The notes under the pieces are model-generated. The model saw nothing but the letters and a program-made list of their open reading frames with translations. It was not told the DNA's origin and did no database searches. Source: an uncultured bacterium (GTDB lineage: Bacteria > UBP6 > UBA1177). From it: a stretch of DNA of 64,000 nt. The position numbers and the translations under genes were made by a program. Shown in pieces: positions 48,484 to 64,000 of the stretch. The stretch is taken from contig CAJOFY010000020.1 of NCBI GenBank assembly GCA_905233945.1, forward strand, positions 11,320-75,319, written 5' to 3'. Position 1 is the first letter of the stretch. Each line of letters starts with the position of its first letter.

Positions 48484-48969
48484 ATGGCAGGCATTGGAAA
48501 AGACTGGGCTGTTAGAGGTAAAACTGCAGTCGGGGTCGAAAACAGAATCTATTTTTTGGGTGAAATTTTTTGGACTGAGCGTGAGCCGTGGAAAACGACA
48601 TGTTACGGTAGAAATCCGAACAAGCCTCTCAGGGCGGCCATGGTGGCAGTCAAAAGTTCGAATTTCGGTAGAGTTACGATGATTCCAGGATCTTCGCAGT
48701 TTTCCGAGGGAGAGTGGAAATTCACACCTGAGGAGATATTGAACAACACTTCGCAGAAAGGGATTGTAGGAACCTACGACCTGGATTATATCAGAGGAAT
48801 AGACAGGTGGTTTATCGAAGGCGATTACAACTATACCAACAAAAGCGAAAACTGGAAATCTGTTGTGAAGGACAAAAATCCGGGTTTTATCGGTACCATC
48901 AGCACGAAAGATAAACAAAGACTTGCTGATATGGTTGTGAAATATATGAAAAAGGGAGAGACAAAATGA
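48484..48969 (+). CDS. Uncharacterised protein A (first gene of the cas-linked operon)
   Basis: 161 aa; GGAGGTG RBS; no recognisable domain; stop overlaps next start (ATGA). Confidence 0.5.
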   Translation: MAGIGKDWAVRGKTAVGVENRIYFLGEIFWTEREPWKTTCYGRNPNKPLRAAMVAVKSSNFGRVTMIPGSSQFSEGEWKFTPEEILNNTSQKGIVGTYDLDYIRGIDRWFIEGDYNYTNKSENWKSVVKDKNPGFIGTISTKDKQRLADMVVKYMKKGETK

Positions 48970-50063
48970 ATATGTGGGATTTTATTTTAAAGCTCCGGAA
49001 TAAGGAATGTCCTGACGATATGAATGAAATGCTGAACTTTTGGACGGAAGCACTCTGCAAGGACAAGAACATCCGCGGATGGTTCCGCAATGCAGTTCAA
49101 TTAAAAGAGGATTATGTCAGGGCAGCTGTAATCGATGTTATGATATCGGCAGGGAAAAAAGAGGACGAGAATGAAAAAAACAAGGACCGTTTTAGATCGT
49201 TCATAGAACAACATATTGATACAGAAGATGAGGCGGCGCGGGAAGAGAAAATAAAAAGCGATTTTTATAAAGCGGTCTACAACAAGGTTTGGGGGATGGT
49301 ATTTGTAAGAAAAAAGGGTGATCCGAGTGAAGAATCAGAAGAATCAGAAAAACAATGTGAATATAAAGAGCCGGCCTTGAATGCAGTCTCTATAGATTAC
49401 ACTCCTGACGAGAATGAAAAAAATATGGAACAGAAACACAAAGAACTTCAAGAGATGGGTTTTGAGGATAAATTCTCCTGCGATCAGATTATGGAGCTTG
49501 TTGACACGGAAATCTTTGATAAAGTTGTGGATTTTATTGAGAAAAAAGACGCATGGGGGCATTATTCCAAGTTTAAGGATAAAAAATTCCCCATTTATTT
49601 TCACAATCCCAAGTTTGTGGACATCAAAACATGCAATGACATTGACAAGCTGTCGTGGACGAAAAATGTCATGAAAAATCTTTGTCTGGATGACGAAGGA
49701 AAATATGCCAAGGATTTCATTCTTTTTATGCCGTGGGAAAAATATCCTGTAAAAAGCGGAGGGAAATATACATCGGAAGAATATATAGAGTATATGAAAT
49801 CCCAATATATAAAATCCCGTATAGAAGAAAAATTTGAAGAGCTGAATCTGAACGATTCAACGATAAGCGATCATCTAAGAGGGGAACAAGGTGTGGAAAA
49901 AGAGTTCCACCGCCTTCTTGACGAGAAAAAGCTGACAAGCAAAGATATTCATGCTTATTGCTATAAAGAGTTTGAAGATATAATCAGGGAAAATTTTAAG
50001 GAAAGGATGCCTGATATAATTGATTTGGAAGATTTGGAAGAAGATTCGGAATTTTCCGATTAG
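48966..50063 (+). CDS. Uncharacterised protein B (cas-linked), acidic C-terminal tail
   Basis: 365 aa; Lys/Glu-rich, ends EDLEEDSEFSD; translationally coupled to gene A. Confidence 0.5.
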   Translation: MNMWDFILKLRNKECPDDMNEMLNFWTEALCKDKNIRGWFRNAVQLKEDYVRAAVIDVMISAGKKEDENEKNKDRFRSFIEQHIDTEDEAAREEKIKSDFYKAVYNKVWGMVFVRKKGDPSEESEESEKQCEYKEPALNAVSIDYTPDENEKNMEQKHKELQEMGFEDKFSCDQIMELVDTEIFDKVVDFIEKKDAWGHYSKFKDKKFPIYFHNPKFVDIKTCNDIDKLSWTKNVMKNLCLDDEGKYAKDFILFMPWEKYPVKSGGKYTSEEYIEYMKSQYIKSRIEEKFEELNLNDSTISDHLRGEQGVEKEFHRLLDEKKLTSKDIHAYCYKEFEDIIRENFKERMPDIIDLEDLEEDSEFSD

Positions 50064-50116
50064 TTCCACTTTAGGGAAATGTAGAGATGATATTTTTGTG
50101 CTGTTGGAGATAAATA

Positions 50117-51289
50117 ATGAACAAATTCGCAAACAAAGAAAGAATCAAAAAAATTGCTGAAACTTATGCAAGAGAAATGTATCTGTGGGGCGATCCTTTT
50201 GAGGCGCCCAGTGTTCCGCCGGAAGATGTTATCAGGAAATTCATGAAGAACCCGGAAGAGCTGGAACCTGATCTTGTCCGCCAGATAGAGACTGATATAA
50301 ACTGCGGAGCCGCTGTTAAAAAACTTGAAATTTGTGATGCTGATCCGGCACTCGAAGAAAATATTCAGATCTCCGGAGAGGAAATACGCAAGGCGCTTGA
50401 ATCGATGAAACATCCTGAAACTAAAATGGATTTTCCTTGCAAGGGCGGTGTTTTCTATACAAAAAGCAAACTCAAGGTGTTTGATGATGCAAAAGGAAAA
50501 AACTATAACATTTATACTTTCCTTCCTCAGGCTGTTCTGCTTCTTAGTGACGAAAAAAGAAAATCGTGCGGAACGAGACTCTTCAGGTGCGCAGTTGTAA
50601 CACCCGATTTCGCGGGTGGAGCCGTTGACGGTCAGGATATGGACCTTGGAAACGGCTGGATTCTCCACAAATGGCTGTGTTTTCCTGTAAGTTTCGAGCA
50701 GCTTGACTGTGAAAGAAAAATGGCTGATGTAGAAAACATTGATAAAATCGCCGAAGAGGTCAACAACTATTTCTTTTCTGAACACGAAATGACGTGCTAC
50801 GGCAGGAAAGAACAGAGACTCTCGGCGATGTCGGATTATGTTCCGGCTATGGCTGATGCCGATGTGGCAAGAGCTGAATGGCAGGCGGAACACTCCGTAT
50901 CTTTCGACACTATACAGGCTTATACAAAAGAATCTTTCAGGAAAGCTGCTGATACCGACGAGGATGTCAGCCGACTTGTTGTCAGAAGAGGTGAAAACGC
51001 CGTTGCGAAATCTTTTGAAGCGGAACTTGATGTAATAATTGATATCAATGCCGACAACTGTGATAGAATTGTAAAAGAGAAGGCATTTCCGACATGGACT
51101 ATTGATAAAGATGCAAATATTCCGGATGGAACTGTTTTCCTGCTGCGGGATGTCAGAAACGGAAACACGATCGGTTCAGGAGAAATAAGTCGCGGCGTGG
51201 CATGGCTCGAGCGTCTTGTTCCGGAGGCTGTTACGATTTCCGTAACTGACGCATCACAAGTAGTTCTGGAGGTTTATCTTCCATGTTAG
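50117..51289 (+). CDS. Uncharacterised protein C (cas-linked)
   Basis: 390 aa; no recognisable motif; overlaps gene D start by 7 nt. Confidence 0.5.
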   Translation: MNKFANKERIKKIAETYAREMYLWGDPFEAPSVPPEDVIRKFMKNPEELEPDLVRQIETDINCGAAVKKLEICDADPALEENIQISGEEIRKALESMKHPETKMDFPCKGGVFYTKSKLKVFDDAKGKNYNIYTFLPQAVLLLSDEKRKSCGTRLFRCAVVTPDFAGGAVDGQDMDLGNGWILHKWLCFPVSFEQLDCERKMADVENIDKIAEEVNNYFFSEHEMTCYGRKEQRLSAMSDYVPAMADADVARAEWQAEHSVSFDTIQAYTKESFRKAADTDEDVSRLVVRRGENAVAKSFEAELDVIIDINADNCDRIVKEKAFPTWTIDKDANIPDGTVFLLRDVRNGNTIGSGEISRGVAWLERLVPEAVTISVTDASQVVLEVYLPC

Positions 51290-52641
51290 TAAAAATTTTT
51301 GATTCCGCTCATACTGGAATGAGCCGAAGTCAGTTTCTTCGTTTTTTTTTCAAAGATTTCCCTTATGAAGCAAAAGACTTTGAATCGACAAATTTCGAAG
51401 AATCACCCGAAAATCCTGAATTGCGCGACTTGTTTACAGATCTGGGTTCGCTTTCGCTTCTGATGATCAAAAACAAAGAAGAAAACGATGAAATCCGGAA
51501 ATTGAAGGCGTTTTTCAAAGATAAAATCCCTTTTCAGCCGTGTAATAAAACCAAATTTGAAGATCTAGACAAGCGGAGATTCTCCGCAGTGTTTTTCCCG
51601 ATAGAGACAGGAGCTGATCCTGAATGGGGAATGTGCGTCAGAAGTGATGCAGGCGACACTTTCTTCTTTGATTCAAAAGACTGCGAATGGAAATCCGGAT
51701 GGAGCGGTGACGGAGATTCATATAAACTCGCTGCGGCACTTGCGAAAGAACTTCTTGAATCGGATTTGCCGGAACGGGATGAACATATTTTCAAAGCTGC
51801 GCAGGACTGGATTGTCACAGGCAGCGTAGATGGAAAAGGGAAAGTCGGCAAAGTAGCTCTCGGCGGCAAACTAAGGCTCAGAACAAAAAAGAGTTTTATG
51901 ATTCCATTGGAAAATATTGCCACCCTTTCGGATGAAGAGAGAAAAAGGGATTTGTTTTCAGTAGATGAGATCTCGACGGCGATGAATCTGATTACAAGAA
52001 ACGGTGTGAAACCGCTTGTCGAGCGCGAATTTCCTCTGGAAGTTGATGAACTTCACATTCTTGTCGGTGCGGCTCTTGCTCCGCAGGTAGCTTCCGTCGT
52101 GCTTCTGAATGCAAAAAAAATTATACTCTGGCACTCGGAAAATTCCAAAGTAAATGCAGATGAAATGTGTGAAATCGCCCGAAAATTAAAGGGAATTGTC
52201 CCTGAAAAGCGCAAAATGTCGTCTTCATCCCTGCTTGATGCCGAAAAGGAACTCAAAAAGTATTTCGCTTACGGCAAGATTTCGCCTCAGGCACGGATTT
52301 TTTTCAATTTCACGAGCGGAAACAGACTCATGGCGATGGCAGTCCAGTCAGTGGCAAGACTTTATCACAATGTAGAGATGATTTACCGCGATATAGATGA
52401 AACCGACAAAAAAAAGGAGGCTGAAGAGAGCCGTCTTATGACATTCAATCTTCTGCAGTACAGCGAATTCCCCCCTCTTTACGGTAAAATATACGGAACT
52501 GTAAGGAGCGGACTTGATGTCAATTTTCTGCGGAACGGCAAAAGAGAAACTGCAAAGAACGTCAATTTTCAGCAGAACGAAGAAACTGAATATAAGGACG
52601 GAGAGGATTTTTTAAATAAACTGATAAAAAAGGAGAAGTGA
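51283..52641 (+). CDS. Uncharacterised protein D (cas-linked), possible Rossmann-like sensor domain in C-terminal half
   Basis: 452 aa; stop abuts the cas10 start (52641/52642); C-terminal region (ELHILVGAALAPQVASVVLLNAKKIILWHS) has a beta-alpha Rossmann-like pattern, but assignment to the CRISPR-associated Rossmann fold (CARF) is unproven. Confidence 0.45.
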   Translation: MLVKIFDSAHTGMSRSQFLRFFFKDFPYEAKDFESTNFEESPENPELRDLFTDLGSLSLLMIKNKEENDEIRKLKAFFKDKIPFQPCNKTKFEDLDKRRFSAVFFPIETGADPEWGMCVRSDAGDTFFFDSKDCEWKSGWSGDGDSYKLAAALAKELLESDLPERDEHIFKAAQDWIVTGSVDGKGKVGKVALGGKLRLRTKKSFMIPLENIATLSDEERKRDLFSVDEISTAMNLITRNGVKPLVEREFPLEVDELHILVGAALAPQVASVVLLNAKKIILWHSENSKVNADEMCEIARKLKGIVPEKRKMSSSSLLDAEKELKKYFAYGKISPQARIFFNFTSGNRLMAMAVQSVARLYHNVEMIYRDIDETDKKKEAEESRLMTFNLLQYSEFPPLYGKIYGTVRSGLDVNFLRNGKRETAKNVNFQQNEETEYKDGEDFLNKLIKKEK

Positions 52642-54279
52642 ATGGCAACTTACGTTTACGGCGGAAAATTCCAGGGAATCCAAAGCTACATTTTTTCAAC
52701 GAACAGACTGAGGGAGAACATCGGTGCAAGCGAACTGCTGAACGAAATATGTACCGAAGATTTTCTTAAAGAAAAACTTACTTCTTTCGAAATCAAAGGT
52801 GATTACGAAATTGTGCAGAAAGCGGCAAGTACAATTAAAATCGTTTTCCGAGAACAAGACGATGCTAAAAAAATGAAACAGGAATTTCCCAAGGTCGCAC
52901 GTGACTTGGTTCCTGGAATAGAGTTTTCACAGACTTATATTGAGCAGAAAAGTGATGATCTGAAAAACATAGACAAAGAAGTCAGAGATAGTTTAGAAGA
53001 GGAACTGAATAAGGAAAAAAACCGTCCTGCAACACTTTATTATCCTAATCTGATGATCGTAAAAAGGGATAACCGCACAGGACTGCCGGTTCGCGCTGAA
53101 AAAAAATACAGAATAAATTATATCGATGATGATGGAAAACAAAAAGAGAAACCTGCAGATGAATCGACATACAAAAAAGATTCCAAAGCAAATGATGCTC
53201 ACCCGAAACTTGTGGAAAAACTTATCGGAGAAGGACGGGGCCAACTGATGCCTGTTGAAATTGAACGAATTTCAAATTCAAACAGTTTTATTGCTGTTGT
53301 TCACGCTGACGGAAACGGACTCGGTCAGATAATAAGCAATTTGGGAAAGAATGTTAATTCAAAATTGTTTTCCGAGACACTTGACGACTGTCTCGTCGGG
53401 GCAGCCGGAGATGCCTTCAGAGAAATAATAGAGAATAAATACAATGGTGACAAAAAAAATTATTATCCGTTCCGTCCGATGGTGCTTGGCGGAGACGACT
53501 TTAATTTTATCTGCAAGGCGGATGATGCCGTTGAGTTCACAAAGAAATTTATAACGCTGGTCGAGAAATATACCGAAACAAAGTTTGAACCTCTTTTTGG
53601 AGATACAAACGAACAAAATAAAAAAGTGTCAAAAATGACGGTTTGTGCCGGAATAGCTTTTGTTAAAGAGAATTATCCGCTGCATTTTGCCTACGAACTG
53701 GCGGAATCGCTGTGTGATCTTGCAAAGGACAAAGCAAAGGATCTGCGAAAGCAGGAAGTGGAAAGATTAAAAAAAGAAAATGCTGAAGCAAATAAAGATG
53801 CGATAAAGAAGGTTCTGATTCCTTCCTGTATCGCTTTCAGAAAGGAATTGGGCAGTTTTGCTGAGGATTTCGATAATATAAAAGAAAAGGACAAGAAATT
53901 TATTTTCGGACCTTATGCGGTTTCCGACAGCGGATACAAACTTCCTCAGATTGACAGTCTGGTTAAAGTTGCGGAAGTTTTGAAAGACAACAATCCTTTC
54001 AAATCGTTCCTCAGAAACTGGATGAGCGATGAACTGGTCAATCCGCATTCGGCTCAGCTTTTAAAAAAACGTTTCATGCAGGTCGCAAATGAGAAAAACG
54101 GTGGAGCATACGCAAAATTCTGCAATGCGTTGAATGAACTTGTTCCACAGGCAAACGCAGAAGACCTTACGCTTGAAAAGGACGGTGTTTCACCTGTTCT
54201 CGATATTCTGACTCTTATTTCCATTGCGGAAAAAACAGACCCGGACAGTAAGAAAGGAGGAGAAAATGATAACAATTAA
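52642..54279 (+). CDS. cas10: Cas10 (type III large subunit) lacking HD domain, cyclase GGDD motif intact
   Basis: N-terminus starts directly with palm-1 signature (YVYGGKFQGIQSYIFS..LRENIGAS, compare Cas10 GDxSGIQxFIF..LRGRS); palm-2 DxD (AVVHADGNGLG) and RPMVLGGDDFNF; no HD motif, no treble-clef CxxC pairs. Confidence 0.7.
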   Translation: MATYVYGGKFQGIQSYIFSTNRLRENIGASELLNEICTEDFLKEKLTSFEIKGDYEIVQKAASTIKIVFREQDDAKKMKQEFPKVARDLVPGIEFSQTYIEQKSDDLKNIDKEVRDSLEEELNKEKNRPATLYYPNLMIVKRDNRTGLPVRAEKKYRINYIDDDGKQKEKPADESTYKKDSKANDAHPKLVEKLIGEGRGQLMPVEIERISNSNSFIAVVHADGNGLGQIISNLGKNVNSKLFSETLDDCLVGAAGDAFREIIENKYNGDKKNYYPFRPMVLGGDDFNFICKADDAVEFTKKFITLVEKYTETKFEPLFGDTNEQNKKVSKMTVCAGIAFVKENYPLHFAYELAESLCDLAKDKAKDLRKQEVERLKKENAEANKDAIKKVLIPSCIAFRKELGSFAEDFDNIKEKDKKFIFGPYAVSDSGYKLPQIDSLVKVAEVLKDNNPFKSFLRNWMSDELVNPHSAQLLKKRFMQVANEKNGGAYAKFCNALNELVPQANAEDLTLEKDGVSPVLDILTLISIAEKTDPDSKKGGENDNN

Positions 54280-54799
54280 CTATAAAATCGAATTTTTTAC
54301 CGACTGGAACTGTTCCAGCGGTCTCACAGGAAACGCCGATATCGATATCGCGGCTCTGCGTGACAATGACGGATTTCCGTATGTTCCCGGCAAAACGGTA
54401 AAAGGACTTTTGAGAGATGCGGCAAGAAATCTGGGTGAAACCAGTGAAGAAAAAATTTTCGGTTCTCCAAACGAGAAAGTTGACGAAACCGAAATAGAAA
54501 AAGCATACTTCTCAAATGCCGAACTTAATGAAAATGTCCGGAAAGCATTGAAATACGACAATGAGAAAAAAGCGTGCCTTTTCCGCGAAATTGCATCTAC
54601 CGCCATTGGTTCTGACGGGGTGGCAAAAGACAATTCGCTCAGAAAAGTCGAAGTTGCTATTCCTCTTACACTTTTCGGCACAATCGAATGTGAGGAAATG
54701 CACAAAGATACGATTTCGAGATGCATGAAGTTCATAAAAAGGCTCGGTATGGAGAGAAACCGCGGTCTTGGAAGATGTGAAATGTCGGAGGTGAAATAA
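54266..54799 (+). CDS. cas7: Minimal Cas7 (Csm3-like RAMP)
   Basis: AGGAGG RBS; RAMP motifs SSGLTGNADIDI...DGFPYVPGKTVKGLLR and C-terminal Gly-rich loop GMERNRGLGRCE. Confidence 0.65.
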   Translation: MITINYKIEFFTDWNCSSGLTGNADIDIAALRDNDGFPYVPGKTVKGLLRDAARNLGETSEEKIFGSPNEKVDETEIEKAYFSNAELNENVRKALKYDNEKKACLFREIASTAIGSDGVAKDNSLRKVEVAIPLTLFGTIECEEMHKDTISRCMKFIKRLGMERNRGLGRCEMSEVK

Positions 54800-56331
54800 T
54801 GAGATACTGTTACAAAGTCACGCTTCTTGCCGATGTCGTAATGAGTTCGCTCAGCTCGACCGAAGTATCGGAATCGCTTGATTATCTCAGCGGTTCTGCA
54901 TTTATGGGGATCGCGGCAAATTATCTTTTCACAGAAAACAGAAAAAACGGAAAAAATTATGATGTTTTTGACGCTGTTTTTTCAGGGAAAATCCGTTTTC
55001 TGGATGCCCATCCGCTGATTGACGGTAAAAGAAGTTTCAAGATCCCGCTCTGCCTCCACAAACCGAAAGTAAAGGGCGCTGCGAAAAAATACCGTTTTGA
55101 AGGAAAACCGCTGGAGGAAGGTGAAAACAAGATCCAGATGAAGCAGGTACGCAAGGGTTTCTTCATCGCAGACGGCGGAACCTGGACAAAAGTCGAACCG
55201 GAACACCAGTACACGATGAAATCTTCATACGACAGCGAAACAAGACGTGCCCAGGACAACGCTCTTTTCGGCTACGACGCTCTTGTAAAAGGAAGCGAGT
55301 GGGTTTTTGTCATGGAATTCGACGATGAAAAGAAGGATATCGCCGAAGAACTTAATAAATTTTTCATTTCAAAAAACCACAGGATCGGAAAATCGAAGAC
55401 CAGCCAGTACGGAAATGTGGAAATCAAAAGAGACGATTCTCTTCTTTCTGACTGCGGGACCTATGAGGCGACAGAAAACAAATACAAAGTCTATGCCGAT
55501 TCGCGCCTCTGCTTCTTTGATGAAAACGGTCAGCCGACATTCCAGCCGACACCTGAGCAGCTCGGTTTCAAAGACGGAGAAATCCTCTGGAACGAAAGTT
55601 TTGTTAGAAAATATGTCTTTACTCCGAGAAACGCGACAAGAAACGCTTACGACGGCGATATCGCCTGCATAGACAAAGGAAGCGTGTTTACTGTCAAGTC
55701 CGAGACAGGTCACAACGGAAGAAAAGTTGTCGGTGAATATCAGTCGATAGGTCTCGGGCAGATAATCGTAAATCCGGAATTTCTGAAAGAACATCCGGAG
55801 CATTTGAAAGATGTTGATGAAAACGATACTAAACCGGCAGTTCAGTGCAACGGTCCTCTTGTTGCATGGCTTGAAAGTAAGCAGAAAGAGAAAGATGTGG
55901 AGCAGAAAATCGCTGAGCAGGTAAATGAGGCGCGTAAGCTTATTACATGGCTTGAAAGTAAGCAGAAAGAGAAAGATGTGGAGCAGAAAATCGCTGAAAA
56001 GGTGACTGCTGCTTTTGCAAGTATGCCGGTCGGCATTTCTCCGAGCCAGTGGGGAGTTTTGAGAGCAAAAGCAAGAATGGCACTTGTCGAACATACAGAT
56101 TGGGCAGACTTCGAATATGCCATTTTCTTGGCTGGAGATGCATATCTTAAAAAAGAGCGCCTGAATTCAAAATGGGGCACGGATAAAGTTAAAAAACTCC
56201 ACAGTGTTTGTAAGAATGTTTGCGGTAATTCAACTTGGAACGATATTCAGAAACTCCGCTTTTTTGAGCTTCTGTGTGCGGCAGCAGCAAAAGAAGCAGC
56301 CAAAAAAACAAAAGATAATGGAGGCAAATAA
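54799..56331 (+). CDS. cas5: Cas5-group RAMP (Csm4/Csx10-like) with C-terminal extension containing a 27-aa tandem repeat
   Basis: N-terminal YLSGSAFMGIAANYL (RAMP G-loop variant), Csm4-like HRIGKSKTSQYGNVEI; coupled start (ATAATGA) with upstream gene. Confidence 0.55.
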   Translation: MRYCYKVTLLADVVMSSLSSTEVSESLDYLSGSAFMGIAANYLFTENRKNGKNYDVFDAVFSGKIRFLDAHPLIDGKRSFKIPLCLHKPKVKGAAKKYRFEGKPLEEGENKIQMKQVRKGFFIADGGTWTKVEPEHQYTMKSSYDSETRRAQDNALFGYDALVKGSEWVFVMEFDDEKKDIAEELNKFFISKNHRIGKSKTSQYGNVEIKRDDSLLSDCGTYEATENKYKVYADSRLCFFDENGQPTFQPTPEQLGFKDGEILWNESFVRKYVFTPRNATRNAYDGDIACIDKGSVFTVKSETGHNGRKVVGEYQSIGLGQIIVNPEFLKEHPEHLKDVDENDTKPAVQCNGPLVAWLESKQKEKDVEQKIAEQVNEARKLITWLESKQKEKDVEQKIAEKVTAAFASMPVGISPSQWGVLRAKARMALVEHTDWADFEYAIFLAGDAYLKKERLNSKWGTDKVKKLHSVCKNVCGNSTWNDIQKLRFFELLCAAAAKEAAKKTKDNGGK

Positions 56332-57800
56332 TGAAGAAATATCTGGCAAGAATCATATTCGAGGCTGAAACACCGCTCCATGTCGGCAGCGGCAGTTCAG
56401 ACCTTACCCTTGATGCGCCCATAAACTGCGATGCGAACGGACTTCCTCAGATAAACGGATCAAGCCTCGCAGGAATTCTGAGAAGTTCTTTCAGTGACGA
56501 CGAAAAAATCAGAGAAAAAATTTTCGGTTTTCAGAAAAAAGCAGCAGAAGAAGAAGGAAAAGGTGAAGGTTCAAGGCTTGTTGTCAGCAATGCACACCTG
56601 ATTTATGAAGGCGGCAGAGTTGTAGAAGGCCTGATAACCAACGATGAAATAACAAAAAGCAAATATCTCAAAGCGATGCAGGCTTACGCTCTTCCTCTGC
56701 GCGATCACTGCAGGATAAATGAAAAAGGTGCTGCAAAAGATCAGGGAAAATTCGACAACTGCGTCCTTCCGAAAGGTGTCAGATTTGTATGCGAGCTTGA
56801 ACTGACTGAAAATGACAAAGATCTTTCCGCTGACTGGGAAAATCTGCTTCAAGTTGTTTCAAGCGATACTTTCAGGGTCGGCGGCAAAGTTAGAAGCGGT
56901 CTCGGAAGACTGAAAGTTCATGAATGTTTCGAAAAACCTTTTGATTTTCAAAATCCTGATGCTGTCAAAGAATATCTTGAACACTCTTCCTCATTCAATA
57001 AAAAAACTGCATGGAAAACTGAACTCAAATCAGGCGGAAAGTCAGATAAATATTTGTGCTACACTCTCGAGATCCAGCCGGAGGATTTCTTCACTTTCGG
57101 CAGCGGATACGGAGATGAAGAAGTCGATATGACTCCGAAAAAAGAGATCGTTGTTAAGTGGGACGGTGACACTCCTGACATCAGTGAAGCAAAAATCCTT
57201 ATTCCTGCTTCTTCGATCAAGGGGGCGATTTCACACAGGACCGCTTTCTACTACAACAAACTGACAGAAAATTATGCTGAAAAATTTAAAGGTGTTAAAG
57301 AAGAAGATAAGCCGGTCGGTCCAAAAAACGAAGCTGTAAGAGCTCTTTTCGGTTATGACAAGCAAAAAGAGGCTGAATTTAAAAAGCCGGAAGTGCCTGC
57401 CGATAAGCAGGAGAAGGCTGAATCTGAAAAGCAGGAAACTCCCGCAGGCAAAGTGTTTTTTGACGACATGATAATTGAAGAAAATGCCGATGAGAAAGTT
57501 TTCAACCATGTTTCGATAGACAGATTCACAGGCGGTGCGATGAGCGGAGCTCTTTTTGACGAGAAAGTCTGCGGAACCAGCGTCGAAGTTGAACCTGATA
57601 AGTTCAAACCGCTGGAGATCGAACCTCTGAAGATTTATGTCAAAAAATCGGCTTTCGAAGGAAACGTCAATGTCAGAGAAGCTTTCGAAAATGCTCTTGA
57701 CGACATCTGCACCGGAATGCTTCCTCTCGGCGGCAGCACGATGCGCGGACACGGCTGTTTTACAGGAACTTTGAAAAAACCGGAGGATAACAATGAGTGA
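56331..57800 (+). CDS. cas7: Fused double-Cas7 RAMP (two Csm3/Csm5-like domains in one polypeptide)
   Basis: Domain 1: ETPLHVGSGSS...GLPQINGSSLAGILRS with G-loop VRSGLGRLKV; domain 2: ILIPASSIKGAISHRTAF with terminal G-loop LPLGGSTMRGHGCF. Confidence 0.6.
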   Translation: MKKYLARIIFEAETPLHVGSGSSDLTLDAPINCDANGLPQINGSSLAGILRSSFSDDEKIREKIFGFQKKAAEEEGKGEGSRLVVSNAHLIYEGGRVVEGLITNDEITKSKYLKAMQAYALPLRDHCRINEKGAAKDQGKFDNCVLPKGVRFVCELELTENDKDLSADWENLLQVVSSDTFRVGGKVRSGLGRLKVHECFEKPFDFQNPDAVKEYLEHSSSFNKKTAWKTELKSGGKSDKYLCYTLEIQPEDFFTFGSGYGDEEVDMTPKKEIVVKWDGDTPDISEAKILIPASSIKGAISHRTAFYYNKLTENYAEKFKGVKEEDKPVGPKNEAVRALFGYDKQKEAEFKKPEVPADKQEKAESEKQETPAGKVFFDDMIIEENADEKVFNHVSIDRFTGGAMSGALFDEKVCGTSVEVEPDKFKPLEIEPLKIYVKKSAFEGNVNVREAFENALDDICTGMLPLGGSTMRGHGCFTGTLKKPEDNNE

Positions 57801-58191
57801 AAATATTATAAAAAGAGAAATGGACCGCCAGCAGCTTAAAGAATTATGGAATGAACTGAAAGCTGAAGGGATGGACTGCGGCTACTACTGGCTTGACAAT
57901 GATGATCACCCGGAACTTTTTGAAAACGGAAATATGCCCGATTTTCCCGGCAACAGCCGTAACTTCATCGTCGAAAGCTGCTGGTACAAAAAGAACGAAA
58001 AGAGTGTCGAGATCCGTTTTGCAGGCGGAAAATACATCGTCACGACAGTTGATCTGACGAAAGAAAAACTTGAAATACCAAAAGAATACTTTGTCTCGAC
58101 GCAGAAAGAAGCGACAATCCTTTTCTCGGATATCATCAACGAAGAAGACGGTTCGATAAAAAAGATTGTTTTTGTTGGTTTCGGAAATTAG
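57793..58191 (+). CDS. Small uncharacterised cas-embedded protein (132 aa)
   Basis: Overlaps upstream stop; mixed alpha/beta, not obviously Cas11. Confidence 0.45.
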   Translation: MSENIIKREMDRQQLKELWNELKAEGMDCGYYWLDNDDHPELFENGNMPDFPGNSRNFIVESCWYKKNEKSVEIRFAGGKYIVTTVDLTKEKLEIPKEYFVSTQKEATILFSDIINEEDGSIKKIVFVGFGN

Positions 58192-58200
58192 GAGGCAGAA

Positions 58201-60537
58201 ATGGCATACGATAATGATCAGAACAGGAAAGGTTCAAATAGTTTCGGGAAAAATCCCACTATAAAATCACCGTATAATTTTGTACCTCTTTCAGAGACAG
58301 TCGTTTGCCCTGATTGGGCGGATGAAGTCAGCCATGACATTCCGTTTGAAGACGGCATCAGCGGAAAAATCGACCTCACAGTCACGCTTCAGAGCGATAC
58401 TTACATCAGAAACGGCGGGAATTGGAGTGAAGCAGATAAAAAAGACGACAAATCTAAATGCCAGAAATTCTTCACTGCAGCAGTAAACGGCGAAAAGAAA
58501 TACATTATTCCCGGAACATCGTTCAAAGGAATGATCCGCAATGTCCTTGAAATCGCAAGTTTCGGAAAGATGCAGAAAGTCAATGACGACAAGTATTCGA
58601 TAAGGGATCTGCATAACACAAGATATACCGGTGAACTGACTGAAAAAAGAGGCGGGATTATTTATCCTAAAACAAAGGCAGGATGGCTGTGTCTCGATGA
58701 AGGTTCCTATGAAGATGAAGGCGGAAGAAAGTGGCAGATAATTCCTTGTGATTATGCGAGGATAGAGCAGGAAGAACTTAGTCCTGATTTTGGCAGAAGA
58801 GGGACTAAAACACTCAAGGAAACTACTGAATTTAAGTATGAAAAATTCGGAGAAGACAAGCTCGAAGTAACTTTTCAACTCGATGAAAAAACAGAACATG
58901 ATGAGCATTCATGCGGAACAATATACTATAAAAAAGTAAAAAAAGACACTCTCAACAAGCCCGAGTCCGAGATGAAAGGAATTCTTGTTTTTACCGGCCA
59001 GCCAAGCAATCGAATTACTCAGGCAGAACGTAACAGCAATGAAAAACTAAAAAAACAACATCCTAAACACATGGAATTTGTTTTCTACGAATATGAAACT
59101 TCGAAAAAACCTCGATCTATTACAGCATCACAAAAAGAAAATTTCATATTTATAAATTCTGACAGCAATAAAAAACCTCTTCCGGAATGGGAATACTGGA
59201 CAAGAAATGAAGAACCGAAGGATAAAAATCTGAAAGAGAAAAAAGGTGACGGAGAATTGAAAGAGGGAAGAAAAGTCCCCGTTTTTTATCTCGAAGACAG
59301 CGAGGGAAATATAAAATCTTTCGGTCTTGCAATGATGTACAGACTGCCTTACGACAACTCTGTCGTGCAGACGATAGAACATACTTCAAGAGATCATTTT
59401 TCTTTTGATGCTTATAAAAAATACGAAAACAAGAACAAAGATAAAGACGATAAAAATAAAGACAAAGATGAATGGAAACCAGACTTGTCAGATCTCATAT
59501 TCGGTTACTCGAATAAGGAAAAATCCCTTAAAGGCAGAGTCCAGTTTTCGCATTTTATCAGTAAAGATAAGGTCGGAGAAATTGAGACTGTCGGTGAGAC
59601 GAAAACAACCGTTCTCGGAGGACCTAAAGCAAGTTATTATCCTAATTATCTGGAACAGCCGGATCTTAAAGCAGGATATAAACTGTTCTGGGATAAAGAT
59701 GCTAAAATCAGAGGTTGGAAGCGCTATCCTGCGCAGGGAATTGAAGCTTCATACCCGCCACCTCCTGAGATAAACGGAAAAGTGAATGAAGATGTTGCGA
59801 CAAAACTTATTCCGCTGAAAGCAGGTGCAGAATTTAAAGGTTCTGTCCGTTTCTTCAATCTTAAACATGAAGAACTCGGTGCTCTGCTCTGGGCTATTAC
59901 CTGGGATAAAGACAAGTACTGCCAGCACAATATCGGTATGGGAAAACCGCTCGGTCTCGGCAGAATCTCGATAGATATTACAGCACAAGTGATTACGGAA
60001 ACTTCAGAAACAATGGATGATTTCCTTGCAGAATTCAAGAAGTATATGAACGGTAAAGTTCCTAATTGGGAGAAGTCCGAACAGATAACAGAACTCAAGC
60101 GAATGGCGGACATCAGGTTCTGGAGTGACGAAGTAACGACATCTTATCCTATTCTTGATATGAACTGCAAACCTACCATCAACGAGTTTAATGATGCGAA
60201 AACAGCAATGGAAAAACTCGAGCGTTATTCTGAAATTGCAGACCGGCACGATGTCAAGGTAGAAACTCTGGAAGACAAGCTGAAAAAAGATGAAAAAAAG
60301 GCAAAAATTGCAGCAGCTTCCGAAGGTTTGGCTCCTGAACTCCAGAAAGTATTTGAATCACTGCGCAATTTAACGAAAGGCAAATTAAACAATAAGCTTA
60401 AAAACAATGAACTCACTGATAAAGGTAACGAACTCACCGAGAAAGAAGTCGCAGTGCTTAAAATTCAACCTCAGGATGCCTGGGAAAAATGGCAGTGGGA
60501 AGTTATAGATTCTCGTAGAAAAAATTGGGACAAATAA
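58201..60537 (+). CDS. cas7: Large Cas7-family RAMP (Csm5/Cmr6-like) with insertions and alpha-helical C-terminal tail (possible fused small subunit)
   Basis: GGAGG RBS; SPYNFVPL N-terminal motif, YIIPGTSFKGMIRNVLE, distal G-loop GMGKPLGLGRISI; final 180 aa Lys/Glu-rich helical. Confidence 0.6.
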   Translation: MAYDNDQNRKGSNSFGKNPTIKSPYNFVPLSETVVCPDWADEVSHDIPFEDGISGKIDLTVTLQSDTYIRNGGNWSEADKKDDKSKCQKFFTAAVNGEKKYIIPGTSFKGMIRNVLEIASFGKMQKVNDDKYSIRDLHNTRYTGELTEKRGGIIYPKTKAGWLCLDEGSYEDEGGRKWQIIPCDYARIEQEELSPDFGRRGTKTLKETTEFKYEKFGEDKLEVTFQLDEKTEHDEHSCGTIYYKKVKKDTLNKPESEMKGILVFTGQPSNRITQAERNSNEKLKKQHPKHMEFVFYEYETSKKPRSITASQKENFIFINSDSNKKPLPEWEYWTRNEEPKDKNLKEKKGDGELKEGRKVPVFYLEDSEGNIKSFGLAMMYRLPYDNSVVQTIEHTSRDHFSFDAYKKYENKNKDKDDKNKDKDEWKPDLSDLIFGYSNKEKSLKGRVQFSHFISKDKVGEIETVGETKTTVLGGPKASYYPNYLEQPDLKAGYKLFWDKDAKIRGWKRYPAQGIEASYPPPPEINGKVNEDVATKLIPLKAGAEFKGSVRFFNLKHEELGALLWAITWDKDKYCQHNIGMGKPLGLGRISIDITAQVITETSETMDDFLAEFKKYMNGKVPNWEKSEQITELKRMADIRFWSDEVTTSYPILDMNCKPTINEFNDAKTAMEKLERYSEIADRHDVKVETLEDKLKKDEKKAKIAAASEGLAPELQKVFESLRNLTKGKLNNKLKNNELTDKGNELTEKEVAVLKIQPQDAWEKWQWEVIDSRRKNWDK

Positions 60538-60539
60538 CT

Positions 60540-62312
60540 ATGACTCCGGCTTTCTATACTCTCAGAACTGCTTATTCCGCGCAGAAAAGAGGCGTGATCC
60601 TTCACGCTGTCCTGCAGGCGATAATGAAAGAGAGCTATATGGATGCTTTCCCCGGCATGGTCTGGAAAAATCTGGCTGTGCCGAACATTTTCTACCATGT
60701 CGAGGGAAGGCGTTTCAGCGATGTTCTGGAGGAAAAGGAGGTCTTTACTGTCTGCTACTTTTTCTGCGGAATTGACGAAGAAACAGTTGCAAAGTTCACC
60801 GATGCTCTGAAAAAGCGGATGGATGTGCCTGAAAACCAGCATTACTACAGGCTGGAAAAGGTGGCTCAGCCGGTTTTGAAAACGCTTGACGATCTTCGCA
60901 GAGAGTATGCCTTCATTCCTGAGAAGGGTGAGATCACGCTTGATCTATTGATGCCGCTTCCTTTCAACTCGGGCAAGGATACGGAAAAAACAGAGATCTC
61001 GAAAGAGCTCTTCAAAAAGCTGCTTTCGGGAAGGATGAAACGCCTTTTCGGCGATGATCTGCAGGGCGGGATCGATACCGATGCTTTCGAGATCACGACA
61101 GATTTAAGGCGCAAAACTCTGTGCACGCACCAAAAGAACGGCGTCTACGGGCAGAGGATACGCGGATGTATCGGCAAAATCACGCTAAAAGGCGATTTTT
61201 CATCTTTCCGTGATCTGCTGATCCTTGCGTGCGAACTGCACCTGGGGCCGGAACTTACGACTTCTCAGGGGTATTTCGTGCCGGAAAGAGGCGGAGAGCC
61301 TTCATCTGCGGATGATGATGAAACAGTGGCCGAACCTTACAAAAAGCCGCTCTACATCACGGCGATGAACTCTTTTCTCGGGGTGAGCGGAGGAACGATC
61401 GAGATTTACAGCGACCGAGAGCTGAAAAATTCATATCCGATGAACAGAATAGGCGAGGTCATCGTTCTGGAAAAGGCGATTTTCAGCACCGATTTTCTGA
61501 CGAAGTGCGCGGAACGCGGTATTCCGGTTTCGATTTCTCTCGGAAAATCGGCTGAATACGGCACGTTCACCAAGCCGGAAAAGAATCGCTACGAAGTTCT
61601 TAAAAGCCATATTCTGAAGTTTTCATCTCTTTCGGAAGAGGAAATCGTCAAAATTTCGAGAGATATAGCCGAAACGAAGACAAGAGCGTTCATAAGCATT
61701 TTCAAAAGAAGGTGGGAAAAAGGAACCGCAAGGATCCTGAAAAAGCTGGAAGCTGCGGCTGATTTGTTCGCAAAGGCTGAAACGATCGATGAAATACGCG
61801 GCTACGAAGGAATATCGAGCAGGCTGATATACGAGAAGATCCAGAATCTGATCCTGAATGAGGATTTCAGGTTCGAGAGGCGCGGCAGATACGAAAAAGA
61901 CTTTATGAACACGACTCTGAATTTCGTATATTCAAAGCTTTATCAAAGGGTCGTGCTTACGCTTAATGCGCTCGGACTGAATCCGTATCTGGGTTTCCTG
62001 CACAGTTCAAACGACCGCTACGAATCGCTTGCCTGTGACATTGAAGAGCTTTTCCGCGCACCGGTTTTCAACGCAGTAATCAATCTGATCAACCTGCAGC
62101 AGCTGAAAGCGTCCGATTTTGTTGAGACTGAAAAAGGAATCATTATCAAGCAAGGGGCGATCCGCACAATACTTGAGGTTTTTGAAAAAGAATTTCAAAA
62201 AATTAACCCGAAAAGCGGAAAAACGCTTGAATATGAGCTTTATAACCAGTGTGTGCTCATCAAAAACTGGGCACTCGGGAAATGTGAACTGAGCTGGTTC
62301 AGGTGGGAATGA
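60540..62312 (+). CDS. cas1: Cas6-Cas1 fusion protein
   Basis: N-terminal 260 aa with Cas6-like G-rich loop (ELHLGPELTTSQGYF); C-terminal Cas1 core (LYITAMNSFLGVSGGTIEIY ... RYESLACDIEELFRAPV). Confidence 0.65.
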   Translation: MTPAFYTLRTAYSAQKRGVILHAVLQAIMKESYMDAFPGMVWKNLAVPNIFYHVEGRRFSDVLEEKEVFTVCYFFCGIDEETVAKFTDALKKRMDVPENQHYYRLEKVAQPVLKTLDDLRREYAFIPEKGEITLDLLMPLPFNSGKDTEKTEISKELFKKLLSGRMKRLFGDDLQGGIDTDAFEITTDLRRKTLCTHQKNGVYGQRIRGCIGKITLKGDFSSFRDLLILACELHLGPELTTSQGYFVPERGGEPSSADDDETVAEPYKKPLYITAMNSFLGVSGGTIEIYSDRELKNSYPMNRIGEVIVLEKAIFSTDFLTKCAERGIPVSISLGKSAEYGTFTKPEKNRYEVLKSHILKFSSLSEEEIVKISRDIAETKTRAFISIFKRRWEKGTARILKKLEAAADLFAKAETIDEIRGYEGISSRLIYEKIQNLILNEDFRFERRGRYEKDFMNTTLNFVYSKLYQRVVLTLNALGLNPYLGFLHSSNDRYESLACDIEELFRAPVFNAVINLINLQQLKASDFVETEKGIIIKQGAIRTILEVFEKEFQKINPKSGKTLEYELYNQCVLIKNWALGKCELSWFRWE

Positions 62313-62596
62313 TGCCGAATACGGGAAATTATGTTTTCGCTTACGACATTTCGCTCACGAAAGAGCGGAACAAAGTTGATAAAGTTTTGAAGGAATACGG
62401 GTTTCGTATCCAGAAAAGTGTTTTTGAATGTGTTCTGACTGAAAATGACCGCGAAAAACTGCTGAACAGGCTGAATGAACTTGGGTTGAACAGCGGTTTC
62501 GTTAAGGTTTACAGGCAGGATTCCTATTTTAAGGCAAAAACTGTGGGACCTGCACCGGAAAAGCAGGATACCGGTTTTGCCTATTTCGCGGCTTAG
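62309..62596 (+). CDS. cas2: Cas2
   Basis: YVFAYDIS...RNKVDKVLKEYGFRIQKSVFEC Cas2 signature; ATGATG start overlapping cas1 stop. Confidence 0.8.
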   Translation: MMPNTGNYVFAYDISLTKERNKVDKVLKEYGFRIQKSVFECVLTENDREKLLNRLNELGLNSGFVKVYRQDSYFKAKTVGPAPEKQDTGFAYFAA

Positions 62597-62648
62597 CGCG
62601 CGAATGTTCGTTGACAATTGAGAAACAGATAAACTCTGCTATGACCTC

Positions 62649-62711
62649 ACCCCTTTTTCCCCTCGCAGACCTCACCCTAATCCCTCTCCATTGTGGCGAG
62701 GGAAAAGGGGT
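62649..62711 (+). promoter_or_regulatory. Long imperfect inverted repeat (ACCCCTTTTTCCCCTCGC ... GCGAGGGAAAAGGGGT) between cas2 and the CRISPR leader
   Basis: 16-18-nt arms separated by about 29 nt of C-rich sequence, 53 nt 3' of cas2 stop. Confidence 0.4.
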
Positions 62712-62958
62712 TCATAGGTAGCTAATTTTTGTGTTGCAGGAGCCTTAGATCAGGAAACGTTTTTATAACGAGGTTTGAACTAATATCTCGATTTTATTTG
62801 GTAATTTCTTAAATGGCGTTTTCTTTGAACTTCTTGATCTCAGTAAAAAAACAGCGGTCGCACGAAGTCACATTTTTGCGGCTGTTGAAAAATGAAAATA
62901 TGGGTAGCCAATTTTTTAATTGAAAACCTCAGTATTTTCTGCTATGTGAGCATGCTAC

Positions 62959-63750
62959 TGTAACGAGTAGCAGAGTAGCTACTCTGGTTGAAACTGTTAG
63001 TGCACTGAATTGTTTTGCCATTTTGTGTAACGAGTAGCAGAGTAGCTACTCTGGTTGAAACAGGTGTCTTTCTGTATCCCCAATCTCACGCTCAAGTAAC
63101 GAGTAGCAGAGTAGCTACTCTGGTTGAAACTGTGTTCATTCTAAGTCTCCAAAATAAAAGTTACTGTAACGAGTAGCAGAGTAGCTACTCTGGTTGAAAC
63201 ATTCACCCATGCCTTACTGTCTCGAATTACTTCAGTAACGAGTAGCAGAGTAGCTACTCTGGTTGAAACTATATCTTCTTTATCTTTTAAAAGATAAAAA
63301 AGGTAACGAGTAGCAGAGTAGCTACTCTGGTTGAAACTCTTTCTCTTCTTCTTTGTCTTCTTTTTCATCAGGTAACGAGTAGCAGAGTAGCTACTCTGGT
63401 TGAAACCTTCTACAAGGCAGAATACCAGAAAATGTCCAAGTAACGAGTAGCAGAGTAGCTACTCTGGTTGAAACCCGTTAAGAAAACGTTTCATAATTTA
63501 CACCTTCGTAACGAGTAGCAGAGTAGCTACTCTGGTTGAAACTAATACTACCTTTTTTCTTTTCTTCTGTTACTTGTAACGAGTAGCAGAGTAGCTACTC
63601 TGGTTGAAACCAGAGTTTCCGCAACATTCTGATGACCCGCTGTAGTAACGAGTAGCAGAGTAGCTACTCTGGTTGAAACATCGTACCAGGCTGATACCTC
63701 TCCGATAATGCCCCTGTAACGAGTAGCAGAGTAGCTACTCTGGTTGAAAC
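62959..63750 (+). CRISPR. CRISPR array 1: 12 copies of 35-nt repeat GTAACGAGTAGCAGAGTAGCTACTCTGGTTGAAAC, spacers 32-36 nt
   Basis: Identical repeats with 67-71 nt period; repeat has internal 7-bp hairpin (GAGTAGC..GCTACTC) and 3' GTTGAAAC handle; AT-rich leader 62716-62958 on cas side. Confidence 0.95.
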
Positions 63751-63789
63751 TAGTTCGTGTTGTTCTTGTTGTTGTTATTGTTGTTGACA

Positions 63790-64000
63790 GTTACATGAAG
63801 GCGGAACCTAGGCTCCGGTTGAAACTATGCTTCTTTATCATTCTTAATTTCAGTTATTTGTTACATGAAGGCGGAACCTAGGCTCCGGTTGAAACAGCCA
63901 GTCAGGTTTGATATCATCAGGCAGACTGCGTTACATGAAGGCGGAACCTAGGCTCCGGTTGAAACAAACAGTTGCCGTCGTAAGTCATATCACTGACAAG
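63790..64000 (+). CRISPR. CRISPR array 2 (truncated by window end): at least 3 copies of distinct 36-nt repeat GTTACATGAAGGCGGAACCTAGGCTCCGGTTGAAAC
   Basis: Three identical repeats with 70-nt period starting 39 nt after the last repeat of array 1; shares 5' GTWAC and 3' CYGGTTGAAAC with array-1 repeat. Confidence 0.85.

Follow-up and report, generated by a model that had tools for sequence, protein, structure and literature searches.

Does the CRISPR-Cas locus encoded in this 64,000-nt stretch of DNA (hereafter, the window) represent a new type III subtype, or a described one in an unfamiliar setting? The original prediction had read a gene order of cas10-cas7-cas5-cas7x2-small gene-cas7-cas6::cas1-cas2-leader-array, described it as III-D-like with subunit fusions, and proposed it as a candidate for an undescribed subtype variant. 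All of the open reading frames in this order exist on the + strand, as do all features given with coordinates below, and they are tightly packed or overlapping. The type III, III-D-like character and the fusions also held, as III-D profiles match all effector genes. The proposed novelty did not, however: the locus belongs to type III-D, which is already described, and is not a new subtype. We consider it very probable that this is a complete subtype III-D CRISPR-Cas system whose effector operon has the "III-Dv" architecture minus one fusion. What sets the locus apart is not the effector layout but its less ordinary parts, namely an adaptation gene encoding a Cas6-Cas1 protein that lacks a reverse transcriptase (RT), a Lon-CARF gene within a four-gene upstream cassette, and a mosaic structure with a hybrid array.

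Effector genes and subtype

The first effector gene, cas10 (52642-54279), encodes a 545-aa protein of III-D type with a cyclase GGDD motif at residues 283-286. It matched the PADLOC Cas10d model over its full length (4.8e-98) and Pfam Cas10 palm2 (2e-12), and its sole PDB match was the Cas10 of Synechocystis III-Dv (8S9T_C, 7e-32). The predicted lack of an HD domain was correct and is the norm in this subtype, since only 3% of III-D Cas10 proteins carry one (PMC11229360); the HD-less family has over 1,675 homologues between 470 and 550 aa long. The adjoining stand-alone cas7 (54266-54799, 177 aa) matched PADLOC Cas7_IIId (6.2e-61), and its catalytic aspartate, D27, aligned by BLASTP with D26 in the Cas7 domain of the Synechocystis Cas7-Cas5-Cas11 protein. 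Two fused Cas7 domains are encoded by cas7-2x (56331-57800, 489 aa; PADLOC Cas7_IIId 1.2e-142, Pfam RAMPs in two stretches), for which the best PDB match was the Synechocystis Cas7-2x (8S9T_D) and whose catalytic aspartates D28 and D266 correspond to two active-site aspartates of that protein in the BLASTP alignment. The last Cas7 gene (58201-60537, 778 aa) carries a large insertion and belongs to the TIGR03986 family, the "Cas7-insertion" of III-Dv, with an NCBIfam score of 308.8 bits against a 161-bit cut-off (E 1.3e-91), a PADLOC Cas7_IIId match of 1.8e-146, and PDB matches to 8S9T_E and 9WXH_D, both TIGR03986 proteins.

Between the two multi-part Cas7 genes lies the "small" gene of the original prediction (57793-58191, 132 aa). 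It is not a Cas11: NCBIfam TIGR04423 (46.6 bits against a 40-bit cut-off) and five PADLOC Csx19 models (best 1.2e-12) identify it as Csx19, and a Pfam CHP04423 annotation was already recorded for this gene.

The cas5 gene (54799-56331) is of the III-D (Csx10) kind and matched PADLOC Cas5_IIId over its full length (2.6e-109); its sole PDB match was the Cas5 part of 8S9T_A, and hhalign aligned it with the Cas5 portion of the Synechocystis fusion at 8.9e-12. The classical Csx10 equivalog (NCBIfam TIGR02674) was barely touched (16 bits, cut-off 177), which places this protein in a III-D Cas5 family other than the classical cyanobacterial Csx10. The gene also contains an in-frame 81-bp tandem duplication. 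Beyond the Cas5 domain, a C-terminal extension of ~185 aa is homologous to that of the Persicobacter counterpart (5.8e-10); sequence searches connected it neither to a PDB chain nor to the Cas11 domain of Synechocystis, and an AF2 model from the single sequence without alignment reached a pLDDT of 33. As predicted, the locus has no stand-alone cas11 gene, and this extension may stand in for Cas11.

Taken together, III-D profiles match every effector gene (Cas10d, Cas7_IIId, Cas5_IIId/Csx10, the double Cas7, Csx19, and the insertion-bearing Cas7) far above chance level, as judged from PADLOC E-values and two NCBIfam matches past curated cut-offs. Among the five proteins compared to solved structures (Cas10, Cas7, Cas5, Cas7-2x, and Cas7-insertion), the corresponding 8S9T chain was the best or near-best relative in each case: the only or best match for Cas10, Cas5, and Cas7-2x, and the second of two for Cas7-insertion. 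The layout had been described as matching no canonical one, yet it equals the published III-Dv operon of Synechocystis sp. PCC 6803 plasmid pSYSA (PDB 8S9T-8S9X; PMC11026444) in gene order and families, the exception being that Cas7 and Cas5 are unfused. Both loci encode an HD-less GGDD Cas10, Cas7, Cas5, Cas7-2x, Csx19, and Cas7-insertion (TIGR03986) with three catalytic aspartates, and have CARF ancillary genes nearby and Cas6, Cas1, Cas2, and an array adjoining. Synechocystis, in contrast, has a Cas7-Cas5-Cas11 triple fusion, where the window and all relatives examined have Cas7 and Cas5 as separate reading frames; the proteins are ~23-40% identical in aligned segments, the Cas6 of the window is fused to Cas1, and the ancillary genes differ.

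That the effector module might still represent a type III subtype or variant not yet described could be argued from the unfused Cas7, which departs from the named III-Dv reference, from the missing stand-alone cas11, and from the below-cut-off Csx10 equivalog. We judge this to be very improbable, as each subunit matches existing III-D profiles very strongly and over its full length, the three proteins by which III-Dv is defined (Cas7-2x, Csx19, and Cas7-insertion; PMC13294483, PMC11026444) are all encoded at the locus, and the identical unfused layout is already found in RefSeq, on Persicobacter psychrovividus plasmid pPP6 (NZ_AP025298.1), on a Bacteroidales metagenome contig (L009), and widely across metagenomes. 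The Persicobacter effector proteins are of similar sizes (Cas10 548, Cas7 186, extended Cas5 478, Cas7-2x 558, TIGR04423 132, and TIGR03986 780 aa), with a homologous Cas5 extension and a Cas10 29% identical to that of the window; that locus encodes Cas6, Cas1, and Cas2 individually and lacks the upstream cassette, with csx20, csx2, and a primase-polymerase as its accessory genes. Profile-based typing assigned the window locus cleanly to III-D, the outcome that the original prediction itself had named as refuting it, with Cas11 alone not positively accounted for.

The locus falls in one evolutionary Cas7-fusion series with III-D2 and III-E (Cas7-11) and shares an insertion-bearing terminal Cas7 with them; the Cas7-2x of the window gave weak matches to gRAMP profiles. 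III-D2 consists of Cas7x3, Cas7-5, Cas10, and CorA (PMC13294483). Unlike III-D2 and III-E, the locus encodes Csx19 and has neither a toxin-antitoxin pair nor a single-protein effector, and Cas7x3, a Cas7-5 fusion, and CorA were absent from the gene calls across the locus and ~10 kb on each side.

Adaptation genes and a hybrid array

The predicted cas6::cas1 fusion (60540-62312) is real and kept in at least four independent loci. Its 590-aa product combines a Cas6 domain (residues 1 to ~250), a 20-aa linker, and a Cas1 domain (267-590; Pfam Cas1 1.2e-53). The Cas6 domain reached only E 0.01 against Pfam Cas6, whose cut-off was passed by three relatives (P0148, P0159, and P0160). A profile built on this domain recovered 97 relatives, which were mostly the N-termini of 860-890-aa proteins with RVT_1 and Cas1 domains, and matched the N-termini of RT-containing fusions at 9e-52 to 1e-33. 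When aligned by BLASTP to one of these (P0149, 876 aa), residues 8-246 correspond to 13-252 and residues 267-590 to 550-873, at 39% identity each, while nothing in the window protein corresponds to residues 253-549 of P0149 and the Pfam search returned no RVT_1 match. By its sequence, then, this protein is an RT-less relative of Cas6-RT-Cas1. Known Cas6-RT-Cas1 proteins (e.g. from Marinomonas mediterranea and Thiomicrospira; PDB 7KFT) likewise carry an N-terminal Cas6 and a C-terminal Cas1 on one polypeptide, followed by Cas2 and adjoining a type III effector as in the window, but include a central group II intron-like RT. With the ~297-aa RT segment replaced by a 20-aa acidic linker, acquisition of RNA-derived spacers would not be expected.

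The RT-less clade (two clusters at 50% identity) has a Cas6-RT-Cas1 sister and is nested amid dozens of RT-containing clusters; this nesting comes solely from a crude midpoint-rooted neighbor-joining tree of the Cas6 domain, and stand-alone Cas6 versions (252-262 aa) are scattered through the family, which shows that fission and fusion are frequent. A Cas6-Cas1 fusion ancestral to Cas6-RT-Cas1 nonetheless seems unlikely to us, given this nesting, that both halves are 39% identical to a single RT-containing protein with a clean junction, and that RT-Cas1 fusions are documented to lose the RT (PMC6753606).

Downstream of this putative RT-loss derivative, cas2 (62312-62596, 94 aa; Pfam 2.1e-14, NCBIfam TIGR01573 past cut-off) encodes a protein identical to that of a type III-B locus (L011). 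A leader of ~360 nt, read from the sequence between cas2 and the first repeat (62597-62959), precedes an array in two contiguous parts. The first (62960-63750) contains 12 identical 35-nt repeats, GTAACGAGTAGCAGAGTAGCTACTCTGGTTGAAAC, and 11 spacers of 32-36 nt; this repeat is predicted to form a 7-bp stem (-11.2 kcal/mol, z -2.6) and is also used by loci of type III-D (L008) and III-B (L011). The second (63790-64000) is built on a 36-nt repeat, GTTACATGAAGGCGGAACCTAGGCTCCGGTTGAAAC, of which three of seven copies lie wholly inside the window and which ends ~246 nt past it; relatives L003, L004, and L005 have this repeat. The two repeats have the 3' end GGTTGAAAC in common. Folding did not predict a stable hairpin for the second (z 0.3), which leaves in doubt whether the same Cas6 processes it.

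Recent adaptation would fit the 12 identical repeats next to the leader and their diverse spacers; exact protospacers in IMG/VR were found for none of the four spacers tested, so that these give no support to current activity. The segment from cas6-cas1 through cas2, the leader, and the first array part (60540-63750) is 89-90% identical at the nucleotide level to L011 and L008, and the stretch around the first upstream gene is 92.5% identical to another type III-B locus (L012). Recombination has made the locus a mosaic, and its array is a hybrid of two repeat types.

Upstream cassette and candidate signalling

Four genes upstream of cas10, here named A to D, had been flagged as unknown; they are indeed unusual, but the fourth is recognizable. 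This cassette is conserved and is also carried by type III-B loci. Gene A (48484-48969, 161 aa) comes first; L003, L007, L012, L016, L017, and L019 carry homologues at the equivalent position. Gene B (48966-50063, 365 aa) is acidic and poorly conserved besides a DFIEKKDGRAG motif, with homologues in eight related loci (alignment A5); one distant positional counterpart gave a 16-bit hint of sigma-70 that was not repeated in nine others. Gene C (50117-51289, 390 aa) is well conserved (42-93% identity), and eight related loci have homologues, among them the distant L019 (phmmer E 1e-59; alignment A4). Genes A, B, and C had no match in Pfam, NCBIfam, PADLOC, or PHROGs, at the limited sensitivity of these searches.

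Gene D (51283-52641, 452 aa) directly abuts cas10 and combines N-terminal helices, a Lon-type Ser-Lys protease domain (S146, K196), and a C-terminal CARF domain (~250-410). It is a predicted protease activated by cyclic oligoadenylate (cOA). Lon-like folds also occur as non-catalytic modules, as in RadA and ComM, and gene D could by analogy be no protease but a cOA sensor, scaffold, or ring nuclease serving A to C. We regard this as the less probable reading, though one with some weight: the Ser and Lys equivalent to Lon S679 and K722 are invariant in 20 aligned homologues and in the distant loci examined, which include Pontiellaceae, Verrucomicrobiota, and Caldithrix, as are the flanking Lon-like motifs GxS[YW]xLA, TG...V.LG.KL, and IPxxN. 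A precedent for a protease of this design exists in CalpL, in which a Lon domain is followed by a sensor domain. Gene D and the CalpL-CalpT-CalpS system share the Lon fold with its Ser-Lys dyad; they differ in the sensor, SAVED4 in CalpL and a single Can2/Card1-like CARF in gene D, and in the partners, which are the anti-sigma factor CalpT and the ECF sigma factor CalpS for CalpL, and three genes with no detectable sigma or anti-sigma similarity for D. CARF-Lon fusions are so far known only as predictions (PMC9704534).

The locus had further been described as free of csm6 and csx1. This is literally true from cas10 to the array, but CARF effector genes adjoin on both sides: gene D upstream of cas10 and, just past the array and outside the window, a 524-aa CARF/PD-(D/E)xK nuclease resembling Can2/Card1; close relatives additionally encode Csx1. 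From the GGDD motif and these CARF neighbours alone, cOA is the signal molecule that we infer. III-D2, a III-D relative with an HD-less Cas10, yields SAM-AMP and SAM-AMP2 and no cOA (PMC13294483), raising the prospect that the Cas10 product is instead SAM-AMP, as there and in the B. fragilis III-B system. We find this highly unlikely here, as a CorA effector is the hallmark of such systems and the genes read around the locus include neither CorA nor a SAM-AMP lyase, all identifiable ancillary proteins carry CARF domains, and the layout is of the Cas7-2x/Csx19 rather than the Cas7x3/Cas7-5 kind.

We established family membership, the conservation of catalytic residues, gene context, and mosaic structure directly, and all biochemical activities are ones that we infer. 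The conservation of the GGDD motif and of the three Cas7 aspartates makes RNA-guided RNA cleavage with cOA signalling the likely mechanism. In the scheme that we propose by analogy to the solved complex of Synechocystis, the Cas6 domain of Cas6-Cas1 would cut the repeats, leaving an 8-nt GUUGAAAC 5' tag, and the fixed-length crRNA would scaffold assembly of one copy of each subunit. The complex would then bind a complementary transcript and cut it at up to three sites (Cas7 D27; Cas7-2x D28 and D266), and target binding would activate the GGDD cyclase in the HD-less Cas10. The resulting cOA may activate the CARF effectors on both flanks, i.e. the gene D protease with its partners A to C and the Can2/Card1-like nuclease. 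New spacers would be taken from DNA by Cas6-Cas1 and Cas2, with a fusion protein of the Cas6-RT-Cas1 lineage working without its RT.

Assignment of the effector module to subtype III-D

Eight open reading frames, packed tightly or overlapping, occupy the + strand from 52642 to 62596 and are followed by a leader of ~360 nt and a CRISPR array. Genes called independently on the parent metagenome contig were the same eight, in keeping with the order and assignments of the original prediction: an HD-less Cas10 (545 aa), a small Cas7 (177 aa), Cas5 (510 aa), a double Cas7 (Cas7-2x, 489 aa), a further small protein (132 aa), a Cas7 with extra mass (Cas7-insertion, 778 aa), a Cas6-Cas1 fusion (590 aa) and Cas2. 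The same prediction held that this layout was not canonical and might represent an undescribed subtype. Using PADLOC, whose Cas profiles are resolved to subtype, full-length matches were obtained for Cas10 (Cas10d, 4.8e-98), Cas5 (Cas5_IIId, 2.6e-109), the small, double and 778-aa Cas7 proteins (Cas7_IIId, 6.2e-61, 1.2e-142 and 1.8e-146, respectively) and the 132-aa protein (Csx19, 1.2e-12), and the last two proteins of the module also fell within NCBIfam families (the 132-aa protein in TIGR04423, 46.6 bits vs a cut-off of 40; the 778-aa protein in TIGR03986, 308.8 bits vs a cut-off of 161). Profile-based typing thus returns a clean assignment to III-D, the outcome named beforehand as refuting the original reading, with a reservation only on Cas11, and the proposal of a new subtype is not supported.

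Comparisons with solved structures and with other genomes pointed to the III-D variant of Synechocystis (III-Dv): the matching chain of its complex (PDB 8S9T) was the top PDB hit of Cas7-2x, and Cas7-insertion had it as the second of its two hits. In the published III-Dv operon (PMC11026444), cas10 is followed by cas7-cas5-cas11, cas7-2x, csx19 and cas7-insertion; cas6, the adaptation genes and an array adjoin these, and accessory genes encoding CARF proteins are found close by. Gene order in the window is equal, with one fusion fewer, Cas7 being encoded by its own gene. Plasmid pPP6 of Persicobacter psychrovividus carries the same unfused effector form (Cas6, Cas10 (548 aa), Cas7 (186), Cas5 with extension (478), Cas7-2x (558), TIGR04423 (132) and TIGR03986 (780)), and a Bacteroidales contig has the same effector order, hence the unfused form is not new. 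The protein collection contains more than 1,675 members of this short Cas10 family, and an HD domain is present in only 3% of Cas10s from III-D (PMC11229360). Searched against GTDB representative genomes, the Cas10 protein gave no match; an alignment of the upstream gene D (51283-52641), used as query against the same genomes, did. The locus is a real new member of III-D with a III-Dv-like architecture, ordinary as a subtype and one that current tools would type as such. The claim as made matters little. What is worth following up is an RT-less Cas6-Cas1 and, outside 52642-64000, a Lon-CARF cassette.

As originally predicted, no separate cas11 gene is present at the locus. One PADLOC model labelled Cas11 matched the Csx19 protein; this candidate was rejected, as Csx19 in the solved III-Dv complex is a beta-rich subunit and not the small subunit (PMC11026444). 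The triple fusion of Synechocystis leads us to infer, by analogy, that the C-terminal extension of Cas5 (~185 aa) may act as Cas11. The extension is conserved among relatives, and hhalign relates it to that of Persicobacter (5.8e-10). Compared by hhalign with the Cas11 domain of Synechocystis, it bore no similarity, a profile search of PDB with the Cas5 C-terminus gave no match, and whole-protein hhalign against the Synechocystis fusion aligned the Cas5 part alone; an AF2 model built on the single sequence without alignment was unusable for this purpose (pLDDT 33). Also within cas5 lies an in-frame 81-bp tandem duplication (27 aa, 55867-55998) with a 17-aa core, WLESKQKEKDVEQKIAE, present twice (50/51 nt identical), which is missing from all relatives and therefore looks recent.

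Module exchange, hybrid array and predicted signalling

At ~48.4 kb, G+C falls from ~0.48 to ~0.41 and GC skew jumps, indicating that the compositional island begins not at 52642 but four genes upstream of cas10, with genes A (48484-48969), B (48966-50063), C (50117-51289) and D. The yak-rumen MAG GCA_017963125.1 (loci L012 and L013) and a metagenome contig (L011) carry the same A-B-C-D(-Csx1) cassette upstream, and downstream of it Cas6-Cas1 is again the same and Cas2 identical; the middle of these loci, at the syntenic chromosomal site, is a canonical III-B module, Cmr1-Cas10 (923 aa)-Cmr3-Cmr4-Cmr5-Cmr6. Nucleotide identity to L012 is 78-79% in the chromosomal flank, 92.5% over 48406-51872 and 94.5% over 60539-62231, and 50440-52635 is 90.7% identical to UBP6_UBA1209 (L016), while the effector genes reach 73-76% at most to any relative. 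This is a clear natural example of III-B and III-D effector modules swapped inside a constant frame of accessory and adaptation genes, which implies that one set of ancillary effectors, one Cas6 and one crRNA 5' tag work with either effector type. Among named genomes the nearest is 'bacterium UBP6_UBA1209'; the related samples are metagenomes from rumen or gut. On the chromosomal side, a conserved Fer4_20/Pyr_redox_2 gene (42902-44344, - strand) is separated from the island by an OPT-family transporter gene and a 5'-nucleotidase/metallophosphatase gene (44482-48313); in the III-D relative L008 and in L012, the island directly follows the Fer4_20/Pyr_redox_2 gene.

The array (62960-64000, continuing to about 64640; 10649-12326 of the parent contig record) mirrors this mosaic history in containing two repeats, twelve copies of a 35-nt repeat 1 (62960-63750) being contiguous with seven of a 36-nt repeat 2 (63790 onward). 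The leader-proximal repeat 1 is that of L008 and L011 and repeat 2 that of three other related loci (L003-L005); the array is a hybrid, which suggests array recombination or leader-plus-repeat replacement. The last of the seven repeat 2 copies is degenerate and precedes a 192-nt gap, beyond which lie two to three degenerate repeat 1 copies and another terminal repeat 2 copy; the array trailer (~140 nt) is duplicated. For four spacers, IMG/VR contained no exact protospacer, and Rfam had no family for either repeat. Repeat 1 can form a 7-bp hairpin and repeat 2 none. Both end in GGTTGAAAC, from which a shared 8-nt 5' tag is predicted.

Cas10 retains GGDD at residues 283-286, preceded by the HADGNG motif, and pairwise alignment places Cas7 D27, Cas7-2x D28 and Cas7-2x D266 opposite the three RNA-cleaving aspartates defined by experiment in the Synechocystis subunits (10.1101/2022.06.13.496011). 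The best-supported mechanism, with all biochemical functions predicted from sequence, would start with crRNA maturation by Cas6 and assembly of a complex of fixed stoichiometry, which would cut complementary RNA at up to three sites; target binding would then activate synthesis of cyclic oligoadenylate (cOA). Cas10 might instead signal by SAM-AMP, as is known in III-D2 (PMC13294483), but this is unlikely given that no CorA was seen among genes neighbouring the locus and that every recognisable ancillary gene includes a CARF domain. Close relatives encode a Csx1 (CARF-HEPN, 414-525 aa) between D and cas10 (e.g. L003, 8504-9976), which is cleanly absent from the window, where D stops at 52641 and cas10 starts at 52642. 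Directly downstream of the array, a 524-aa CARF/PD-(D/E)xK (Can2/Card1-like) protein, a predicted second cOA effector, lies just past the window end (12692-14266 of the parent contig record, about window 65003-66577).

The Cas6-Cas1 fusion

Residues 276-575 of the 590-aa fusion form an ordinary Cas1 (Pfam 1.2e-53). Taken alone, the N-terminal 250 aa gave marginal Cas6 matches (E 0.01 to 5e-4), and their profile found no Cas6 among PDB sequences. A word-indexed homologue search retrieved six close relatives only; the Cas6 identity of this region was settled by an exhaustive HMMER profile search, which recovered 97 relatives, mostly the N-termini of 860-890-aa proteins that Pfam identifies as Cas6-RT-Cas1 fusions (RVT_1 and Cas1), with the Pfam Cas6 model above cut-off in 3 of the 10 relatives scanned. 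In one such fusion of 876 aa (P0149), residues 13-252 and 550-873 correspond to residues 8-246 and 267-590 of the window protein (39% identity in each case), which has a 20-aa acidic linker in place of the ~297-aa RT segment. RT losses are documented for RT-Cas1 (PMC6753606). Given that a crude NJ tree placed the RT-less clade as sister to P0149 within a mostly RT-containing family, the economical reading is that Cas6-Cas1 would have arisen by RT loss from Cas6-RT-Cas1. Stand-alone versions of this Cas6 (252-262 aa, 72-90% identical) also exist and end at the fusion junction. A literature search for 'Cas6-Cas1' returned gene lists only and no fusions. With a natural RT-less Cas6-Cas1 as a comparison point, one can ask what RT and Cas6 each contribute when Cas6-RT-Cas1 systems acquire spacers.

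A candidate Lon-CARF protease and its conserved partners

Gene D abuts cas10 and encodes a C-terminal CARF domain (PADLOC 1.5e-9), and its AF2 model, built from 20 homologues (pLDDT 86.6), resembles folds of two kinds. Around S679 and K722, the catalytic residues of E. coli Lon, lie motifs with which GDGDS146YKLAAALA and TGSVDGKGKVGKVALGGK196L...MIPLEN of D align. All 20 homologues keep S146 and K196 without exception, as do distant ones in MAGs of Pontiellaceae, Verrucomicrobiota and Caldithrix. D is therefore most likely a cOA-regulated Ser-Lys protease. Its domain logic is that of CalpL, in which the sensor is SAVED and not CARF. CARF-Lon fusions are, in the literature searched, uncharacterised and known by bioinformatic prediction only (PMC9704534).

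Profile searches detected no family for A, B or C; nevertheless, at least eight loci, one of them from a distant MAG, carry these genes together with D in unchanged order. Detectable homologues of all four genes occur in an unclassified-bacterium group including UBP6_UBA1209 and in that distant unclassified MAG (L019), and the cassette is found before either III-D or III-B effector modules. We tentatively suggest that A-B-C-D might form a portable cOA-activated proteolytic pathway, in which a protease of the Lon type, sensing through CARF and not SAVED, would act on at least one of its three partners. If true, CalpL/T/S would not be the sole CRISPR-Lon signalling system but would have an independent counterpart acting on new substrates, and a Lon-CARF protease with three conserved partners would add to the protease-based CRISPR signalling represented by CalpL and SAVED-CHAT. 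A CalpS-like sigma factor identity for B was rejected, its one 16-bit match, in one distant locus, being missing in nine other B-position proteins.

In the Pontiellaceae, Verrucomicrobiota and Caldithrix MAGs (L020, L021, L022 and L025), the distant D homologues, which keep the Ser-Lys dyad, are preceded by three ORFs of about 160, 310-350 and 320-376 aa. These have no detectable homology to A-C, whose size pattern they follow, and may be highly diverged partners. We also considered whether the CARF half of D moves with the cas10 module, as a breakpoint at 51872 in comparisons with L012 and L003 would have it; this was rejected, as L016 has the whole of D in common with the window at 91% nucleotide identity while its Cas10 matches no better than that of relatives with ~53% identity.
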